Source: a virus. Taken from it: a DNA stretch of 64,000 nt. The translations under genes were made by a program, and so were the position numbers. Below the pieces are notes generated by a model. The model did no database searches. It was not told the origin of the DNA and was given only the letters and a program-made list of their open reading frames with translations. The stretch lies in IMG/VR virus record IMGVR_UViG_3300034073_000569, positions 32,001 through 96,000 of that record. One strand, given 5' to 3'. This document shows positions 77 through 41,463 of the stretch, piece by piece. Every line of letters begins with the position of its first letter. The stretch's first letter is position 1.

Positions 77-2641
77 TTATTTATTCTGTATTAATAAGTC
101 TAATTTATTCTTAAGATCTTCTATCTGAGCTTGTTGTTCCTTTATGGCTTCTACTAATACTGCTGATACACCATTGTAGTTCATTGCATATCCTTTTTCT
201 TCATCATATCTAATGAGTTCTGGAATTACAGGTAGCACTTCTTGAGCAATAAATCCTAATTCAAGTCCTTTGTTTTTAGTTCCATCCTCTCCTTTATCTA
301 TATATTCATATGAAACACCTCTTAACGCTTTTACTTTGTCTAATGAACTTGTTAATGGTTTAATGTCTTTTTTCATACGAGCATCAGAAGCATTATATAA
401 TCCAACAGTATATAAACCATAAATAAGATATAAGGTATATCCGGCTACAGGAGAGTCACTTCCAATTGCATAAGACGCTGTACTGTTACCGTAATAGAAT
501 GCCCATTTACCAATACTTTGTCCATAAAGACCAAAATTTCCACTTTGTGACATAAAAAAAGTACGATAACCAGAGTTATCATGTATTCCATATCCGCTCC
601 AATTGTTTTGCCCAGTTCCATAAGTATGCACATTACCATATGAACCATATGTATCAGCAGATGTTAAACCCCTTCCACCACTACCAAAATAAGCATGATT
701 TGTATTTAACGTACCTATTGAAATATCTCCATTACCATCTCTTAGCACAATTTGATTTCCTGCATTACCTGATGTAGCATTTATAGTTGCAGAGTTTGCT
801 TGTCCTGATATAGAAGCCGCTTGTCCTGATATATTAAAATGACCAGTACCGCTTGTAAATCTAGCTGACCATCCAATACCTTCTCTATGAAATCCAAACT
901 CTGTTTCATTCATCATTAGAGTCATGCCATTACCACCTCCAAAATGAATACCAGTCCATCCATTTTTTGAGCCTTCTACTCTCCAAACTCCATAAGATAA
1001 GTTCTGAGGATAAAAATGAGCATTATTTACAGAAGGACAGTATAGTCCATGTGTACCTGTTAACTGCAACCATGTAGCTACTTGATAATAAGAATTACCA
1101 TTTTTACCAGGAAAATTATCATAGTGATAACCATCTACAGTATCTGCGTTACTTGCTGAAGAAGCAGAACCTGCAGAGTTTGCGTAAGCTACTTGTACAC
1201 CAGATCCATGATTTGTTGTTAACTGCCAGTAAGACCCTGTCCAGTTATTCACAATATAATAATCATTAGGGTGTGAGGTAGCCCACAGTTTAAAAGCTCC
1301 ATCAGCTTTACCACTAATATTAGTCTGGTCTCCCGTATTTGTACCAGAAGATGATCCACTAAAGTTTGCAGCATTCCAATTACCACTATCATCACACCAA
1401 GCTCCCCATGAGCCTGCTTGTGTTAAGAAACCAATACGGTTAGAGTTACAATGAATTTCACGCTGTCCTTCATCACTATCAGACATATAAATGGAACTAG
1501 ATGAACCAGCTCCAGTTACTGTAAGGTATCCGCCAACATTTAAACTACCTGGTGTACTTGTGTTACCAGATCCATCTAATAATGTAAGAGTTCTTGTAAG
1601 AGAACTAAATACACCCGTATACTGTCTAACATATATAGGTTCTGTTCCGTCATCAGCTGTTGCAATTTCAGCAAAACCAGCATTAGATGCTCCTCCTACT
1701 CTAATTCTAAAAAAATCATTATCTCCTATAGTTGCATATACGAGATTTGCCTCTGAACCACCGGCAACTGTTTGACTAATTGCTGCAGCTGTACCAGATG
1801 ATGTTATATATCCACTAGGGTTAGTTGAATTATATGGTGTATATCCAAGAGCCGTTGTTACATTAGCTGATGTAATACCGGTAATATACCCAGATGGGTT
1901 AGTAGAGTTGTACGGAGTATAACCAAGTGCAGTAGTAACCATATTACTTGTAATACCAGTAATGTATCCACTAGGATTAGTAGCATTGTAAGGTGTAAAC
2001 CCTAAAGCTGTTGTTACTTGGCTAGATGTAATACCTGTTAGGTAAGTATTACCATCAACAGATCCGTCTGCTTTAAGGAACTGAGCTGCTGTACCGCCAC
2101 TCTTTATAAAAGAAGCTGCGGTTAGGTTATTAGTAAACTCAGCATTACCAGTAGTATAAATCTTAAATCTTCCTGCTGAGTTAGTAACGTCATATACTGT
2201 AAAGGTACCGTCCGTGTTACTGATAAAGTAATCAGGGTTGTTGTCTGTATCTGTAAAGTAAAGACGCGGATTAACACCAGATAAAGTCAGATCTCCTGTT
2301 AGGGTACCTCCTGTTAAAGCAAGCTTTCCTCCTATAGAAGTAGCAACTGTTGTAGCAAAGTTAGGATCATCTCCCAGGGCTGCTGCCAGTTCATTAAGGG
2401 TATCTAACGTACTCGGAGCTGCATCTACCAGAGCTGCTATAGCTGACGTTACAGAAGCAGAAGTAGCATAAGACAGGCCAGATACATATGTACGCACCCA
2501 TGCTGTAGTAGGTACTTTAGAATTATTATCTCCTGTTCCCGGAGCTATACTCAAAGTAAGACTTGCTGGTAGAACAACGTGTCCATCAGCATCATACTGA
2601 AATACATTAAGTATATGGGAGGTCTTCCTTTGTTTGTTCAT
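77..2641 (-). CDS. Tail fibre / receptor-binding protein with C-terminal intramolecular chaperone (peptidase S74-like)
   Basis: 854 aa, Gly/Ser/Thr-rich; APSTLDTLNELAAALGDDPNFATT fibre motif; C-terminal SDARMKKDI...GFIAQEV...VEAIKEQQAQIEDL chaperone signature. Confidence 0.85.
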   Translation of the reverse strand: MNKQRKTSHILNVFQYDADGHVVLPASLTLSIAPGTGDNNSKVPTTAWVRTYVSGLSYATSASVTSAIAALVDAAPSTLDTLNELAAALGDDPNFATTVATSIGGKLALTGGTLTGDLTLSGVNPRLYFTDTDNNPDYFISNTDGTFTVYDVTNSAGRFKIYTTGNAEFTNNLTAASFIKSGGTAAQFLKADGSVDGNTYLTGITSSQVTTALGFTPYNATNPSGYITGITSNMVTTALGYTPYNSTNPSGYITGITSANVTTALGYTPYNSTNPSGYITSSGTAAAISQTVAGGSEANLVYATIGDNDFFRIRVGGASNAGFAEIATADDGTEPIYVRQYTGVFSSLTRTLTLLDGSGNTSTPGSLNVGGYLTVTGAGSSSSIYMSDSDEGQREIHCNSNRIGFLTQAGSWGAWCDDSGNWNAANFSGSSSGTNTGDQTNISGKADGAFKLWATSHPNDYYIVNNWTGSYWQLTTNHGSGVQVAYANSAGSASSASNADTVDGYHYDNFPGKNGNSYYQVATWLQLTGTHGLYCPSVNNAHFYPQNLSYGVWRVEGSKNGWTGIHFGGGNGMTLMMNETEFGFHREGIGWSARFTSGTGHFNISGQAASISGQANSATINATSGNAGNQIVLRDGNGDISIGTLNTNHAYFGSGGRGLTSADTYGSYGNVHTYGTGQNNWSGYGIHDNSGYRTFFMSQSGNFGLYGQSIGKWAFYYGNSTASYAIGSDSPVAGYTLYLIYGLYTVGLYNASDARMKKDIKPLTSSLDKVKALRGVSYEYIDKGEDGTKNKGLELGFIAQEVLPVIPELIRYDEEKGYAMNYNGVSAVLVEAIKEQQAQIEDLKNKLDLLIQNK
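1803..2040 (-). repeat. Three tandem 26-aa (78-bp) coding repeats GITSxxVTTALG(F/Y)TPYNxTNPSGYIT
   Basis: Visible in the translation; DNA copies differ at synonymous sites. Confidence 0.9.
2330..2371. repeat. 42-bp exact direct repeat, copy 1 (copy 2 at 10671-10712)
   Basis: tcctatagaagtagcaactgttgtagcaaagttaggatcatc is identical in two fibre genes. Confidence 0.9.
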
Positions 2642-2669
2642 TATCTTTAATTATTATTATTCTATTTTT

Positions 2670-4661
2670 TTAATATGTAGCATATGTTGAATTTATAGAT
2701 ACACTACTATCAGGAACAACAATTGCACTACCATCAGCATTTAACATATGATTTACTCTATAACCAATCCACATTCCGTTTACTTCTGGATTACTTGTAT
2801 AACCTATTGCAATATATCTTCCACCAGCATAGTTTAAATCTACAATATTCATATCACAACCTCCACCTTTATACATACCTGTGATACCAGCAGATCCATT
2901 TGTTGATGAGTAATTTTTCATAATCCAAAAAGAAGACATGTTCCAACATGTATAAGAAGCTGCATTCATATGACCGCTAAGAGAAAATCCAGCTGCATCA
3001 TTTAGATTACAAACAAGCAAATAGTTTCTACTATAAGCAGTATTAAGGTTAGGAGAAAGATTACCTATATATGAGTTACCACTAAATACCCTTGTATTGT
3101 GTTTTATATATCCGTAGAATACAGATGACTGATCTCCTCTAAAATCAACAACATTTACAGGAGCTGCGTTTCCACTTCCACCACCATAAGCTCTAATTCT
3201 TAATGTATTAGTAACTGCGGCTCCAGCTGTTACAGTTGCATCTATACCAATCCATCTATTTATTGAACTAGTTCCACTCTGTAAATCTCCAAAATATCCA
3301 TACTTTATTAAGTTTTCAAAATTTCCATCAACACCAGATGTTGTACAGTATTTAGCTATTTCTCCTTGTACAGATAGCGTAGATGCTGGATTTGTAGTAC
3401 CAACACCAGCATTGCCATAATAAGCATTTAAGTAAGAGTTGCCATTACCAGCTAAGTGTACGTTTGTAGTTCCAGTTGCATATCTTAGTTGAATAAATGC
3501 TCCTACCCCAGAACCACCACCTATTAATACTATATCACCTCCACCTTGAGCACCAACACCTAAATAACTAGCTACCGATAAATTATAAGTAGGACTTGTA
3601 GTACCAATACCTACATTTCCCCCGCTAGCATTAATTATTAAATTGCCATTATTAGGAACTCTTATCATTCCAGCCGTAGCAGAACTTCCGTTTGCATAAT
3701 ATCCTAAAATAACCCCTCTTTTAGCTGAAGTACCTATTTGGTCTACGTGTTCAGAAACGGTAATTTCTCCACTTGTATAAGTTCCATCTCCAAGAACTGA
3801 AAGCCTAGCTCCCGGAGTAGTAGTTCCGATTCCAACGTTACCAGCATTAGTAATTACTAACCTGTCGGCAGTCCCTAAAAGTTCTGGTCCAATTTTAAAT
3901 GTATCTGAATCACTATTATCAATTCCTACATACCAGCTAGCACCAGGTACTCTATATTCAGTAACTGAATCCCCAGTTCCAACGTTTTCAAATTTTATAA
4001 TAGGAGTTGTAGTAGAAGTATTTGCGTAAACTTGAAATAGTCTATTTGTAGGAGTAGTTCCGATTGCTACTGCAGCGTTAAAAGTAGTATCTCCCGAAAA
4101 TATAGTAGCACCAGTAGAAGCTATTGTAAGTCTTGTACTTGTAATACCATTATCTCCATATTGTATTGTTAAATCTCCACCACTGTTTCTAAATCTATAA
4201 TCACCATATCCATCTGCACCCCAAGTTGTATTAGTACCACGCATTAATTCAATATCAGCTATTGGAGTGGTATTTGTAGATGCTTGTACTCTTAATAAAG
4301 CATTACCACTTTCTACAATAAATAAATCACCACTAAACGTAGCACTTGTACCACTTAAAGACCCAGTTAACGTACCTCCACTAAGAGCTAGTTTAGTTGC
4401 AATACTATTAGTTACAGTGGTTGAGAAGTTAGCATCATTACCTAATGCAGCAGCAAGCTCATTTAGAGTATCTAATGCCCCAGGAGCTGCGTTAACCAAG
4501 TTACTTATCTGTGTAGTAACATAGGACTGTGTAGCATAGGTTGCTCCACCACTAGTTAATAAACTACCAGTCACAGTAAGATTAGCTGGTAATACAATAT
4601 TACCACTAGCATCATAACTGATGAGATTTCTTAAAAAGCCTGTATCTTTCGTATTACCCAT
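2670..4661 (-). CDS. Tail fibre protein
   Basis: 663 aa; APGALDTLNELAAALGND motif, repeated GNVGIGTT motifs, distinct C-terminal tip. Confidence 0.8.
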   Translation of the reverse strand: MGNTKDTGFLRNLISYDASGNIVLPANLTVTGSLLTSGGATYATQSYVTTQISNLVNAAPGALDTLNELAAALGNDANFSTTVTNSIATKLALSGGTLTGSLSGTSATFSGDLFIVESGNALLRVQASTNTTPIADIELMRGTNTTWGADGYGDYRFRNSGGDLTIQYGDNGITSTRLTIASTGATIFSGDTTFNAAVAIGTTPTNRLFQVYANTSTTTPIIKFENVGTGDSVTEYRVPGASWYVGIDNSDSDTFKIGPELLGTADRLVITNAGNVGIGTTTPGARLSVLGDGTYTSGEITVSEHVDQIGTSAKRGVILGYYANGSSATAGMIRVPNNGNLIINASGGNVGIGTTSPTYNLSVASYLGVGAQGGGDIVLIGGGSGVGAFIQLRYATGTTNVHLAGNGNSYLNAYYGNAGVGTTNPASTLSVQGEIAKYCTTSGVDGNFENLIKYGYFGDLQSGTSSINRWIGIDATVTAGAAVTNTLRIRAYGGGSGNAAPVNVVDFRGDQSSVFYGYIKHNTRVFSGNSYIGNLSPNLNTAYSRNYLLVCNLNDAAGFSLSGHMNAASYTCWNMSSFWIMKNYSSTNGSAGITGMYKGGGCDMNIVDLNYAGGRYIAIGYTSNPEVNGMWIGYRVNHMLNADGSAIVVPDSSVSINSTYATY

Positions 4662-34886: not shown

Positions 34887-34992
34887 AGTCAGGTGGCGGA
34901 ATGGTATACGCAGGGCATTACAACCACCAAGAGATAATATCAAAGGTGTCCTATTCAAGAGTTGTTTACAGGTTCGAATCCTGTCCTGACTG
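34887..34992 (+). tRNA. tRNA-like gene with an expanded anticodon loop (identity undetermined)
   Basis: Acceptor AGTCAGG/CCTGACT; D-arm GCG-GAATGGTATA-CGC; T-arm ACAGG-TTCGAAT-CCTGT; ~27-nt loop in the anticodon arm. Confidence 0.75.
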
Positions 34993-37405: not shown

Positions 37406-37789
37406 ATGGAAAATTTAAACAACCCATCAATTAGTAAAAAACCATTTATGTTTACTAAAGAAGAAAAAGCAATCTTAAAACCTTATGTAATAGGTGAGAA
37501 AGAGATTAACAAACAAGTTTGTGATGAATTAAGTGTACAAATCGGTAGATCATTTAAGAACATCTATCAGTACATCTATCGTAACAAAAAAGCTGTTGGT
37601 AAATCTAAAAAAGTAAAAGCTAACTCTGTTAAAGTTAAAGCAGATAAAACAGTTACACGTGATAAATCTGTAAATAATAACACACCTATGTTTAAACAAG
37701 GAGAGTTTATTATTCCTGTAAGTTCATGGGAAGTACGTAATAATAATGGTACAACAAGCTTAGTTTTAAAGTTTGATAAATCAATTTAG
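37406..37789 (+). CDS. Hypothetical basic protein (possible HTH)
   Basis: 127 aa. Confidence 0.55.
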   Translation: MENLNNPSISKKPFMFTKEEKAILKPYVIGEKEINKQVCDELSVQIGRSFKNIYQYIYRNKKAVGKSKKVKANSVKVKADKTVTRDKSVNNNTPMFKQGEFIIPVSSWEVRNNNGTTSLVLKFDKSI

Positions 37790-37801
37790 TTTAACTACAA
37801 G

Positions 37802-37827
37802 AGGGAAGCTGTAATGGCTTCCCTTTT
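37802..37827 (+). terminator. Intrinsic terminator
   Basis: AGGGAAGC-TGTAATG-GCTTCCCT plus T-tract. Confidence 0.75.
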
Positions 37828-37842
37828 ATAATATCAGTAACC

Positions 37843-38412
37843 ATGATACTAAAAGACCGTGTGATTGATCACACAAAAAGCAATCTTCATGAAGCTATGA
37901 GTATTCCTAGCTATATGAGAACTAAATGCCGTGAGCGTATTTTCTTTGCATCTTTCTCTAATGCATTACAAAGAACTGAGTTGTTTGAAGATGAAGATGA
38001 TGCTCCATCAGAAATGACTACTGTTACAGGAGACTTACAGCGTTGTCTTCAATTGATTACAGATCCTTTAGAATATGAATACACTATTCTTACTTTCTTT
38101 GGTCATCAGAGAATGGCTATGGAAGTATATGGTAGGTATAAGTTTTTACAAGAGTCTGGTAATTCTAAAGAAGACAAGCTAAAGATGAGCATCTTAAACT
38201 TAGTTGAGCAATTAAAGAATAAAGATGAAGATGATGAGGAAGAAGATGATGTAGATAACTTAAATAGCTCCACACTTCTTAAAAGAATATCTATAGTAAA
38301 AGAGTCACACTATAACTTTGATACTTACTTAAAATTAGTAATCAAGAAACTAAGTAGCAGAGGTGATTCTGACTTTAATATAGATGATCTATTAAAGGAT
38401 GTTTTAAATTAA
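37843..38412 (+). CDS. Hypothetical protein
   Basis: 189 aa. Confidence 0.65.
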   Translation: MILKDRVIDHTKSNLHEAMSIPSYMRTKCRERIFFASFSNALQRTELFEDEDDAPSEMTTVTGDLQRCLQLITDPLEYEYTILTFFGHQRMAMEVYGRYKFLQESGNSKEDKLKMSILNLVEQLKNKDEDDEEEDDVDNLNSSTLLKRISIVKESHYNFDTYLKLVIKKLSSRGDSDFNIDDLLKDVLN

Positions 38413-38436
38413 GTTTTTAGGGGTTAGTGAGTAAGG

Positions 38437-38472
38437 TGTAGTAGGGGGTCTTTGACTCCCTCTACATTTTTT
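38437..38472 (+). terminator. Intrinsic terminator
   Basis: TGTAG-AGGGGGTC/GACTCCCT-CTACA plus T-tract. Confidence 0.7.
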
Positions 38473-38500
38473 GTTTAGTCTAATAAACGTTGTAGATTTG
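38470..38500 (+). promoter_or_regulatory. Bacteroidota-type housekeeping promoter
   Basis: TTTG (38470-73), 19-nt spacer, TAGATTTG (38493-500): matches the -33/-7 consensus. Confidence 0.75.
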
Positions 38501-38521
38501 TTATACACAACCACATAATAC

Positions 38522-38809
38522 ATGAAGAACACAAACCCACGTTTAAATAATGGCTTTGGTCAAGTCTCTAATGAAGTTATGAGAGATCCAGAGTTATCTT
38601 TAAAAGACAAGGGCTTGTATGCATATTTATGTACGTTTGCTGGTAGTCAGACTAATGAATTAATAGTCAGTGTCTACCGTATGGCAGATGAGTGTGGTAC
38701 AAGTCCTTCTACTATTAAAAGAAGTATAGAAGTATTACAAGCAAAAGGAATCATAGATAGAATCTTTATGGGTAAAGGTAACACCAGAAAGACTATCATT
38801 TTGAAATAA
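38522..38809 (+). CDS. Small winged-HTH protein (phage replication-initiator N-terminal-like)
   Basis: FGQVSNEVMRDPELSLKDKGLYAYL...TIKRSIEVLQAKGII. Confidence 0.75.
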   Translation: MKNTNPRLNNGFGQVSNEVMRDPELSLKDKGLYAYLCTFAGSQTNELIVSVYRMADECGTSPSTIKRSIEVLQAKGIIDRIFMGKGNTRKTIILK

Positions 38810-38818
38810 AAGCTTTAA

Positions 38819-39577
38819 GGCAAGTGGGACACGTGCACATATATTAGGTGTTATACACGCTAGTATATGAATAAGTCCTTGTCCCCACGCCATGTTATTG
38901 TGCAAGTCTGACCGACAGAGCTAGTAAAAGTTGTACAGGTAGCGAAAGGTTGAGCTGGTTTAACAACATGATGAATGGTCCTATGATATATAAACCTTGC
39001 AAAAGTTTATATGGAGGTAGTTTATCTAGTTATTCAAGTGCTCCCCAAGTGACGTACAACCGTCCGATGTGTCACTATCCTGTTAGTAGCCTTGCACATA
39101 TCTTATTAACTGATTACAAAAGACACCTAAATCCTCCGGGTTGTGTCAGTTGTAATAGTTAGTGTACAAAGGGTCTGATTTAGAGAGCTAAGTAGCGTAT
39201 TAACCATAATTACAAGGGCAGTATCCGCGAACCCCTTCAGTAATAGAGACGTCTATGAACCAGCAAGTAGCATGATCAGAACAATGTAGATCCATAAGAA
39301 CTATGGAACCTTTAGATAGACCCTTTTTTAAAAATATTACTAGGTTGAAGCCAGATATAGGTAATAAAACCGACCCGTGATGCGTCCTATGTAACATAGT
39401 TATATAGAGCCGATATAAAGCCGGACATCTAGGAGCAGTTAGCTTAATATATGTTATTGGAAGCTACTTATACGTCACGTGTAGCAAAAACAGGATAAAC
39501 AAACGGTAAATTTTTCCAAGCCTGAACTTTATTACTAACGAACTAAAGAGATAGGATGAGACACCTATCTCTTTTTT
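38819..39577 (+). ncRNA. Large multidomain structured RNA region
   Basis: No credible ORF; five consecutive domains closed by long-range stems (see findings). Confidence 0.6.
39546..39577 (+). terminator. Intrinsic terminator
   Basis: AAGAGATAGG...CCTATCTCTT plus T-tract. Confidence 0.8.
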
Positions 39578-39589
39578 AATTTAAAGTAT

Positions 39590-39865
39590 ATGGACAAACA
39601 TTTATTATTAATCTGTAGCTGCTATAGCTCAGAACATCAAATGATTATACATCTAGATGAAGGTGGTGATTTATATCCACCTGAAGCTTTTGTACATATT
39701 CATTTAGTAAGACGATCTTTTTGGTACCGTCTTAAGTATGGAATAAAATATATATTTGGATACAAGTCCAGATACGGTGCATGGGACGAATTTATCTTAG
39801 ATAAAACTCATGCAAAATCTCTTAGAGAAATAGCTAAACACTTAGATGATGAAACAGTATACTAA
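39590..39865 (+). CDS. Hypothetical protein
   Basis: 91 aa; CxC...H motif. Confidence 0.65.
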   Translation: MDKHLLLICSCYSSEHQMIIHLDEGGDLYPPEAFVHIHLVRRSFWYRLKYGIKYIFGYKSRYGAWDEFILDKTHAKSLREIAKHLDDETVY

Positions 39866-40403
39866 ACTACCTATTCCTACTGATTCAGCATGGGATAGAT
39901 TTAAATGGGGACGTTATGTCCACTGGCGTATTAGATATTTCTTTCAAGGTGTTAGAAATATAGTAAGATGGATTCCTACACTCTATCATGATAGAGACTG
40001 GGACGATTATTATATTACTAAAATGCTTCAAAAGAAAATAGAGTTTCAAAGAGCTCATTTAGTATACTGCAATAGACATCTTAATATTGAGAGAGACAAC
40101 TTCTGGATGACTGTAGTTCTCAACTTACTAGAGCGTAAGCATGAATGCTATTACGAGATAGAATATCATGACTATATAAAAATGGGTCCTAACATACCTA
40201 GAGAAATTAGATATGAAGGAGTTAATGAATATATAGCTAAATATCCAGGAGTTAAAAGACGTGCACTAGCTAAATATAAGAAGTATAAGTACATCCAAGA
40301 AAGTGATGCACTATCTATGTTTATGGCAAGTGAACGTCAACGTAAATGTGATGCTTTAATATTTGAAATACTTAAACAACATTCTGCTGAATGGTGGGAT
40401 TAA
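39846..40403 (+). CDS. Hypothetical protein
   Basis: 185 aa; DRDWD and WWD motifs. Confidence 0.65.
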   Translation: MMKQYTKLPIPTDSAWDRFKWGRYVHWRIRYFFQGVRNIVRWIPTLYHDRDWDDYYITKMLQKKIEFQRAHLVYCNRHLNIERDNFWMTVVLNLLERKHECYYEIEYHDYIKMGPNIPREIRYEGVNEYIAKYPGVKRRALAKYKKYKYIQESDALSMFMASERQRKCDALIFEILKQHSAEWWD

Positions 40404-40413
40404 ATAAATTAAT

Positions 40414-41463
40414 ATGAATAACGTTTGGACAAAATCAGCTAATAACTACGCTATAAAAGAAGTTAGTCAACAACTTCCTCTGTTACCAGTAGGAATATAC
40501 AAGTATCAATTAGATCAGTATGAACAACCGTTTCTTACTCAAATAGCTGATAAGTTTCATTTTCCATATAAGATATATGGTGTAGAACGCTCTTTTATAG
40601 ATAGAGTGAAGCGTTCATGGACAGAAACTACAGGTAACTTTGGTGTATTACTTAATGGTGTGAAAGGTACGGGTAAGACTGTTACAGCAGAAATGATCTG
40701 TAACGAAATGAACTTACCAGTTATCGTCATACCATTTCACCACAAGTCTATTGTGTCTTTCTTAAATGAAATACAACAAGATGTTATTGTGTTTATAGAT
40801 GAGTTTGAGAAAATCTATGACGGTTATAATAATTCATTACTTCCTATCATGGATGGTGCATTAAAAACCAAGCATAGATTGATGTTCTTACTTACTACTA
40901 ATGAATTACGTATAGAGCGTAACTTGTTACAGCGTCCTAGTCGTATCAGATACGTAAAGACGTTTGAAGACATGACTCTACCAGTAATTATGGAAGTAGT
41001 TAACGACACACTCTTACATCCTGAGCTACGTGAGTGTACAATCAAGATGATTTCAGAACTACCTATCATCACTATGGACTTAGTTAAGTCTATTGTACAA
41101 GAAGTAAACATTCATCATGAAGATCCTCAGTTGTTTAAGCCAATCTTTAATGTACATGCAGATAGAGATGAACTGTTCAATGTTTCTGCAATGATTGATG
41201 GTCAAAAACAAGAGGTGGCTACATTTGCTCACGTAAGTCCTAGATATATTGTTGCAAATGCTTCTGTAGGAGAAGAATTCTGTGTAAACTATAGTGAAAT
41301 AGGTGATATTGTATCTGTAATATCTGACAGTCAGATTGTTGTAAAACAAACATTCTACAATAAGTTAGAAGATGGTTCTGAAGAAGAAGTAACACAAGAT
41401 ATAATCTATTACTTAGAGAAAGCTACCAAAACACATAGATCATTTAACTCTTACGCATTTTAG
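40414..41463 (+). CDS. AAA+ ATPase
   Basis: GVKGTGKT, VFIDEFEK, LTTN, RPSR. Confidence 0.88.
   Translation: MNNVWTKSANNYAIKEVSQQLPLLPVGIYKYQLDQYEQPFLTQIADKFHFPYKIYGVERSFIDRVKRSWTETTGNFGVLLNGVKGTGKTVTAEMICNEMNLPVIVIPFHHKSIVSFLNEIQQDVIVFIDEFEKIYDGYNNSLLPIMDGALKTKHRLMFLLTTNELRIERNLLQRPSRIRYVKTFEDMTLPVIMEVVNDTLLHPELRECTIKMISELPIITMDLVKSIVQEVNIHHEDPQLFKPIFNVHADRDELFNVSAMIDGQKQEVATFAHVSPRYIVANASVGEEFCVNYSEIGDIVSVISDSQIVVKQTFYNKLEDGSEEEVTQDIIYYLEKATKTHRSFNSYAF

Follow-up and report, generated by a model that had tools for sequence, protein, structure and literature searches.

A conserved array of structured RNA modules behind a winged-helix gene in a putative crAss-like phage

Results

RNA modules behind the winged-helix gene

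A 64,000-nucleotide stretch of viral DNA, bases 32001-96000 of the 127,624-base record IMGVR_UViG_3300034073_000569 and called the window here, carries a gene for a 95-residue winged helix-turn-helix (wHTH) protein followed by 780 bases that are poor in open reading frames (ORFs). These bases hold five RNA modules, A to E, and comparison with relatives shows that the modules are conserved as plus-strand RNA secondary structures and shuffled from locus to locus. A new set of structured phage RNAs, arranged as an array rather than as a single giant RNA, is well supported. The locus is probably a tandem array of independently folding non-coding RNA modules within an RNA-gene island in the early rightward part of the genome of a distant crAss-like (Bacteroidota-type) phage, and its products would bind or titrate a protein through a bulged-G helix. 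A preliminary description of the window had drawn five stem-closed domains, the 95-residue gene and a promoter-like motif, and all of these are present in the sequence as described. The modules, in window positions, are as follows.

38819-38892, plus strand: module A, a long bulged hairpin of highly conserved sequence that ends in ...CACGCCA; optional.
38899-39098, plus strand: module B, multibranched, with the bulged-G helix CUGAC (38908-12)/GUAG; optional.
39104-39165 (stem-closed domain 39107-39161), plus strand: module C, a hairpin with the bulged-G helix CUGAU/AUAG and conserved internal loops; always present, directly 5' of D.
39167-39327 (stem-closed domain 39168-39326), plus strand: module D, a 17-bp closing helix with the bulged-G motif GUCUG-A-UCU.../...AGA-UAGAC and a variable multibranched interior, then a U run.
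39336-39543, plus strand: module E, made of the two sub-domains Ea and Eb; optional.

Close to the base of the closing stem, B, C, and D each have a helix, 5'-CUGAU/AUAG-3', in which a single G is bulged; the CUGAC/GUAG of the window's B is a compensated change. The helix (5'-CUGAY/RUAG-3') is invariant in 27 of 27 sequences of the combined C and D modules (C+D). B and D also share the direct repeat GUCUGAY...GAGCUA(A)GUA and are evidently paralogues, to judge from their sequences. Within E, Ea is closed by CTAGGT (39340-45) and ATCTAG (39427-32). The second half of the module (39438-39539), overlooked in the preliminary description, is Eb, which is closed by GUUAG (39438-42) and CUAAC (39535-39) and contains a pseudoknot between CAGG (39491-94) and CCUG (39521-24).

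Covariation of the modules

Relatives were collected as 17 viral loci found through the wHTH protein and as further viral and metagenome loci found with three C/D DNA patterns; with the window included, the set comprised 40 sequences and 26 distinct C/D cores. C+D was analyzed in 27 sequences over 46 pairs using five measures, 500 column shuffles, and controls with slid partners. Standard pairs occupy 94.5% of 1203 cells compared to 33-42% when the partners are slid by 1-3 columns. Both sides have changed in 24 of the 46 pairs, and on every one of the five measures all 500 shuffles fall short of the observed value. A MAFFT alignment of C+D that was not fitted to the model gave the same covariation picture. 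Helices 1 and 2 of the C+D alignment, which make up C, account for 18 pairs (12 changed on both sides), and the closing helix of D (helix 3) accounts for 17 (6 changed on both sides, 97.1% paired). Twelve distinct sequences represented E; 95.3% of their cells are paired, both partners have changed in 12 of 39 pairs, and four of the five measures were reached by 0-1 of 500 shuffles. The closing stems GUUAG/CUAAC and UUGGAA/UUCCAA of E covary, and its pseudoknot appears as CAGG/CCTG, CAGA/TCTG, or GCAC/GTGC in different lineages.

The optional 5' modules were compared in smaller sets. A was aligned in 10 sequences, where 3 of 25 predicted pairs have changed on both sides, all three in the apical stem. 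B was aligned in 6 sequences, where 14 of 64 predicted pairs have changed on both sides. These include GTTGTAC/GTACAAC, which had been put forward as a pairing that implies a pseudoknot. The pairing itself stands. RNAalifold draws it as a nested helix, and the pseudoknot may or may not form.

The ratio of G.U to A.C in paired columns is 124:23 for C+D and 30:1 for E. The plus strand is therefore the folding strand, since G.U far exceeds A.C in the pairs. On the plus strand the fold reaches -194.6 kcal/mol (z -2.55), lower than in all 20 shuffles, and the minus strand has a z of -1.39 with 2 of 20 shuffles as low. Covariation in relatives is much stronger evidence than folding energy.

Presence in RNA libraries

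Contigs from four RNA libraries of four studies (X15-X18) cover 38852-39545. The summed word depth in X15 over 38876-39545 was 16-67 (one bin 0) compared to 0-8 in the flanks. The corresponding values were 6-22 compared to 0-4 in X17 and 24-44 compared to 0-14 in X18. In X16, depth was 22-77 compared to 8-38 and rose above the flanks in two of five bins. DNA can occur in RNA libraries, and positions that lack RNA-contig cover are no evidence of silence. The ends of two RNA contigs, each from a different study, fall at 39326 and 39332, shortly after the closing helix and U run of D, which is a weak hint of a 3' end. Adapter-like loose contig ends in X15 at 38523, 39083, and 39520 are single contigs each, and no inference was drawn from them. 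These data give moderate support to transcription of the region. The preliminary description had proposed a structured non-coding RNA on the plus strand, and covariation in relatives, the G.U excess, and the presence in RNA libraries all agree with it.

Several points weigh against the array reading or limit its evidence. A is nearly invariant, so that 3 of its 25 pairs are informative, and the support for B comes from six sequences of about three types. For E, 473 of 500 shuffles did as well on the fifth measure, further pair types. D is much reduced in L013 (relatives carry L numbers). The sequences are related, hence the shuffle controls overstate significance; firmer evidence comes from the slid-partner controls and from the large number of distinct pair types. 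Because the bulged-G motif never varies, the U-A to C-G change in B is all that covariation can say about it. As a measure, contig depth is poor and cannot rank genes, and the runs were chosen for containing this stretch.

Coding potential and catalogue searches

ORFs were checked under table 11 and with each single stop reassignment (TAG=Q, TGA=W, TAA=Q). The ORFs that overlap the stretch under table 11 reach at most 70, 65, and 56 residues. Read-through of TAG, TGA, or TAA opened no frame of more than 104 residues within the RNA stretch, and a 141-residue TAA=Q frame at 38480-38905 lies mostly antisense to the wHTH gene. Four of 6 homologues interrupt the 70-residue frame inside B, and one of these four is 97-100% identical to the window across modules. 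Window positions 38810-39589 thus have no conserved ORF and are judged non-coding. An ORF-free stretch between two terminators had been described, and the two hairpins (38443-38461 and 39545-39574) do enclose a sequence with no conserved ORF.

A search of the whole window with Rfam 15 at the gathering threshold returned nothing except a tRNA-like gene at 34887-34992. At E ≤ 10, 38300-39700 gave five rows, all far below gathering scores and none on the sense strand of modules A-E. Six relatives searched by cmscan at E ≤ 1 gave nothing on the RNA stretch. BLASTN in distant mode of 38400-39600 against 50,697 phage records gave no match, and no description of these RNAs was found in the literature, searched mostly at the listing and abstract level. 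As far as these sequence searches reach, A-E match no catalogued RNA family, in keeping with the novelty proposed in the preliminary description.

Mosaic order of the modules among relatives

C and D are adjacent and present in all variants, forming a core of about 225-310 nucleotides. A occurs in 11 of 26 variants by BLASTN (a regular expression found 10, missing L025) and B in 6 variants; some variants also have a further module, X, and a 5' hairpin, M0. E was found in 17 of 38 sources with covariance model R2. The window's genome has a single copy each of C+D and E. ORFs of 143-244 residues lie between modules in L004-L007, L019, L025, L031, L036, and L044. A tRNA-like gene lies between the wHTH gene and C in L006 (Rfam 38 bits) and in L007 and L029 (BLASTN 98-100%), and a tRNA-like sequence follows D in L056 (by eye only). 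ARAGORN found no tRNA in L006, L007, or L056.

The gap between D and E is a hot spot of inserted ORFs, with products of 244 residues (L019 4904-5638), 143 residues (L004 3997-4428), and 174 residues (L044 10514-11038). None of the three matched a Pfam family at E ≤ 0.001, and the labels "ParB-like" for the 244-residue ORF and "HNH-like" for the 174-residue ORF, given by eye, were dropped on that ground.

The covariance model of C+D (R1) matched directly behind wHTH genes that are 52-54% identical (L009-L014, E 1e-22 to 7e-4), and in L056 at 46.8 bits. A general C/D pattern scan of genome contigs, which cannot prove absence, found no prophage or host genome with the RNA; two candidates from such contigs, L059 and L060, were not confirmed by R1.

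The mosaic order bears on whether A-E could fold as one ornate molecule of ~750 nucleotides of the GOLLD/ROOL type, variable in its 5' part and conserved in its 3' part, which might assemble into a homo-oligomeric cage. Size, phage origin, pseudoknots, E-loop-like AGUA/GAA motifs seen by eye, and the tRNA within the locus of relatives all resemble descriptions of GOLLD and ROOL, and in the window one promoter-like site and one compact terminator flank the stretch. However, every module closes on itself. Among the 26 variants with called ORFs, 10 carry ORFs of 143-244 residues between D and E. Many C+D loci lack E, and most lack A and B. An all-against-all column scan of C+D recovered the known helices plus one extra candidate pair (149-235), and no covarying long-range pairs between modules stood out. 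Rfam gave no GOLLD or ROOL match even at E ≤ 10. A giant RNA is therefore quite improbable. The single multidomain RNA of the preliminary description gives way to the alternative that it had also named, an array, since domains vary independently, tRNA or ORFs stand between them in relatives, and the modules are separable and shuffled.

Locus layout and transcription signals

The order within 38400-39600 is a terminator-like hairpin, a promoter-like motif, the 95-residue ORF, the 780 ORF-poor bases, a second terminator-like hairpin, and an ORF at 39590. The features that flank the modules are as follows.

38443-38461, to 38469 with the T run, plus strand: terminator-like hairpin and T run with an 8-bp stem (5 G-C pairs), which would close the upstream transcription unit.
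TTTG at 38470-38473 and TAGATTTG at 38493-38500, plus strand: promoter-like TTTG-N19-TAGATTTG, a sequence match.
38522-38809, plus strand: gene for the 95-residue wHTH protein, Pfam HTH_36, E 5.6e-9.
39545-39574, to 39580 with the T run, plus strand: intrinsic terminator-like hairpin and T run with an 11-bp stem, which would end the unit.

A terminator scan of 37500-40500 found 4 sites compared to 1.0 +/- 0.9 in shuffles. The promoter-like motif reads as what we take to be the Bacteroidota -33/-7 consensus. A regular expression search found TTTG-N19-TAnnTTTG in 12 of 23 relatives and missed it in 11. The upstream hairpin is kept 5' of the wHTH gene in relatives, including those that lack the motif (L004, L005, L019, L025, L030, L031, L033, L034, L038, L043, and L048). 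The wHTH-RNA unit may be driven differently in these relatives. The self-contained unit of the preliminary description thus holds in the window and in part of the family and fails elsewhere.

The modules might instead be cis-acting mRNA elements, with C+D as a 3'-untranslated-region stabilizer or terminator of the wHTH message. E would then be a leader, terminator-type riboswitch, or attenuator, in which an aptamer and a terminator control read-through into the downstream genes. C+D begins within about 10 nucleotides of the wHTH stop codon in L005-L009, L012, and L056, and a U run follows the closing helix of D in 25 of 27 sequences (counted by eye). A terminator hairpin always follows E directly, and after another 15-40 nucleotides or so the next ORF begins. 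A hairpin with a T run, differing in sequence, follows E in the E-bearing relatives whose downstream sequence was inspected (no full tally). Against these features of a leader, A and B put about 300 nucleotides between the wHTH gene and C+D in the window, E is dispensable in L003 and L004, which share the downstream genes, and the gene after E differs in L008. No conserved antiterminator or other alternative pairing was seen in E, and the terminator sequences are unrelated between variants. The structural complexity is also well beyond the needs of a stabilizer. We regard a cis-acting role as unlikely.

The genome and the winged-helix protein

The terminase of the record is closest to those of crAss-like phages of Bacteroides and Flavobacterium at ~24-25% identity. 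The genome appears to be that of a distant, uncultured crAss-like phage from a lake. A Bacteroidota host is likely because of this terminase affinity, in keeping with the promoter type. Two giant ORFs (1805 and 3031 residues) lie on the minus strand at the end of the record (113110-127622) and have almost no PHROG match; with the terminase affinity they fit a crAss-type genome plan.

C+D lies 3' of the wHTH gene in every locus for which upstream sequence was available. The wHTH protein matches PHROG 428, 270, and 186 (2e-11 to 3e-10), and the aligned part is the N-terminus of replication-initiator and DnaD-like families. An AlphaFold model has a pLDDT (per-residue model confidence) of 88.9. 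The nearest folds are the CodY C-terminal domain, MarR, TubR, and an initiator N-terminal domain, and the initiator structures 4pql and 4pt7 are among the matches. A profile of the protein compared with PDB sequences gave generic wHTH regulators only (E 0.01-1), and tblastn against 50,697 phage records gave only three weak matches in Firmicute phages. The model predicts an ordinary DNA-binding winged helix. The preliminary description had the RNA possibly acting with this protein; only position speaks for this, and neither the predicted fold nor the tests made, none of which shows RNA binding, support it.

In the more distant phages of L016-L018, the HTH_36 domain heads proteins of 312-343 residues (match ~2100-3220) that are followed by ORFs of ~430 residues, an arrangement that looks like an initiator-helicase pair. 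Model R1 did not find C+D behind these fused-form genes or behind the 48%-identical gene of L015.

An initiator-like wHTH protein raises the prospect of a DNA-level element, a replication origin or single-strand initiation signal with stems formed in single-stranded DNA. The resemblance to the N-terminal domains of replication initiators and DnaD-like loaders and the L016-L018 proteins argue in this direction. However, the stretch has no iterons and only two-copy repeats of 10-18 nucleotides, and its G+C lies above rather than below the flanks (0.385-0.415 across 38800-39399 compared to 0.27-0.36 in most flanking windows). The strong asymmetry of G.U over A.C, the pseudoknots, and an RNA-library depth that exceeds that of neighboring genes in three of four runs also oppose a DNA function, which is very improbable.

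An island of RNA genes

tmRNA (transfer-messenger RNA) genes (Rfam 64-84 bits, 426-684 nucleotides) lie ~110-1530 nucleotides downstream of C+D in five relatives.

L012, 3704-4177: tmRNA gene (Rfam).
L009, 4216-4729: tmRNA gene (Rfam).
L044, 11184-11655: tmRNA gene (Rfam).
L036, 12076-12501: tmRNA gene (Rfam).
L037, 2252-2935: tmRNA gene (Rfam).

These tmRNA genes are unusually long, and ARAGORN gives a tag peptide for the L036 copy, which has a tRNA next to it (Rfam). L009 has an ORF with a NADAR domain (Pfam 6e-50) at 3561-4049, plus strand, between the C+D RNA and the tmRNA gene. A Pistol self-cleaving ribozyme at L036 6162-6225, plus strand (44.3 bits against a gathering score of 34.5), lies ~4 kb upstream of the RNA island. 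The tRNA-like gene of the window (34887-34992, plus strand) has an Rfam score of 39.3 bits and a 43-nucleotide insert in the anticodon region and sits 4 kb upstream of the island; ARAGORN found no tRNA in the window. No tmRNA in the window's genome reaches the Rfam gathering threshold. Taken together, the locus presents itself as a variable island of RNA genes and small mobile ORFs that is headed by the wHTH gene.

These neighbors invite the explanation that A-E derive from translation RNAs (tmRNA or tRNA), as remnants or as forms too diverged for standard models to recognize. The islands of relatives carry tmRNA and tRNA, the window's genome is without a tmRNA at that threshold, and A ends in ...CACGCCA. 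Yet the stretch has no tRNA or tmRNA match at E ≤ 10, ARAGORN is silent, and BLASTN against the tmRNAs of the five relatives gave matches of 10-20 nucleotides only (E 0.8-2.9). L036 holds both E and a tmRNA, and no T-arm-like sequence was seen in A-E. This origin is extremely improbable.

Discussion

Proposed function

The array would be transcribed rightward together with the wHTH gene, in the window from a host-type promoter. C+D would end at the U run behind the closing helix of D, and E at the terminator at 39545-39574. The products would be stable trans-acting RNAs. We infer that the bulged-G helix at the base of B, C, and D is probably a protein-binding site: the RNAs would recognize a protein through it and hold or titrate that protein, which could be a host factor for RNA handling or translation or a phage protein. 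The proposal fits an island in which relatives have tmRNA, tRNA, and NADAR genes. Our best guess for the mechanism is a scaffold or decoy that binds a protein.

A bolder version is unlikely. In it, C+D and its paralogue B are a new class of phage decoy or scaffold RNA whose bulged-G helix captures a host protein of RNA surveillance or translation rescue (Ro60/Rsr-like, or a factor of the tmRNA pathway) or the wHTH protein, and the wHTH-RNA pair is a device for ribonucleoprotein takeover or counter-defense. If true, the pair would be a previously unknown phage ribonucleoprotein device in an island with tmRNA, tRNA, and NADAR genes.

To our knowledge, few large and intricately folded RNAs of unassigned role have been described from bacteria or phages, and each of them has so far led to new biology (the GOLLD and ROOL cages, OLE). 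The present RNAs matter for their strong covariation, pseudoknots, repeated invariant helix, signs of high RNA abundance, fixed position by the wHTH gene, and tmRNA-bearing island. Short C+D constructs (about 225 nucleotides) suit structure determination and pull-downs, and they offer a handle on the role of abundant early non-coding transcripts in crAss-type phages.

Comparison with known systems

Parts of the account of GOLLD and ROOL (10.1101/2024.12.08.627333) place these RNAs near tRNA islands, sometimes with tRNAs in the GOLLD linker, and describe a less conserved 5' region. To the extent of that account, the likeness lies in phage encoding, a length of several hundred nucleotides, pseudoknots, many conserved stems, nearby tRNA genes, and a variable 5' part with a conserved core. 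A phage location near tRNA genes was found here as well, with tRNA in L006 and L036 and tmRNA in the islands of five relatives. The present RNAs differ in that neither Rfam model matches them (in the window, or in six relatives at E ≤ 1), and in that the modules are separable, have ORFs or tRNA between them, and are linked to the wHTH gene.

In phi14:2, a crAss-like Cellulophaga phage, ORF-free early rightward stretches (g004-g006 intergenic) are transcribed above most protein-coding genes, according to parts of a report on that phage (10.1101/2020.03.07.982082). To that extent the resemblance of these early long non-coding RNAs to our locus lies in a crAss-type phage with a Bacteroidota host and in the early rightward placement of ORF-free stretches. 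The two are not homologous: R1 with filters off gave a best score of 9.7 bits (E 0.15) on NC_021806 1-9000, R2 gave no match at E ≤ 0.01 on the same bases, and tblastn with the wHTH protein found no match in phi14:2.

Vertebrate Y RNAs carry GGUCCGA at a bulged helix, and the bacterial Rsr-binding motif is GNCGAAN0-1G, near the 5' end, as given in parts of a published account (PMC4201824). The helix of the 5' and 3' ends of D resembles the Ro60-binding helix of Y RNAs in having one bulged nucleotide next to GGUC (GGUCUGAU/AUAGACC), followed by a U run, and in enclosing a variable interior; phage-borne examples of Y RNA/YrlA exist. D differs in placing its bulge one base pair further in and in having GGUCUGAU in place of GNCGAAN0-1G, which is absent from A-E by eye. 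There is also no tRNA-like domain (no tRNA-clan match on the stretch) and no Rfam match. A search for the Ro60/TROVE gene (PF05731) in the whole 127.6-kb record gave 0 matches with control genomes positive; an Rsr might still be encoded by the host.

The modules are unlike tmRNA, with no RF00023 or ARAGORN match on the stretch and no similarity between A-E and the tmRNAs of relatives. The T4 tRNA cluster with its species 1 and 2 RNAs is a phage stable-RNA island. The window's island differs from such islands in that it consists of uncatalogued RNAs only. It is like them in packing several small RNA genes one behind another into a single early or middle unit, in having mobile ORFs among these genes, and in the tmRNA and tRNA genes of relatives.

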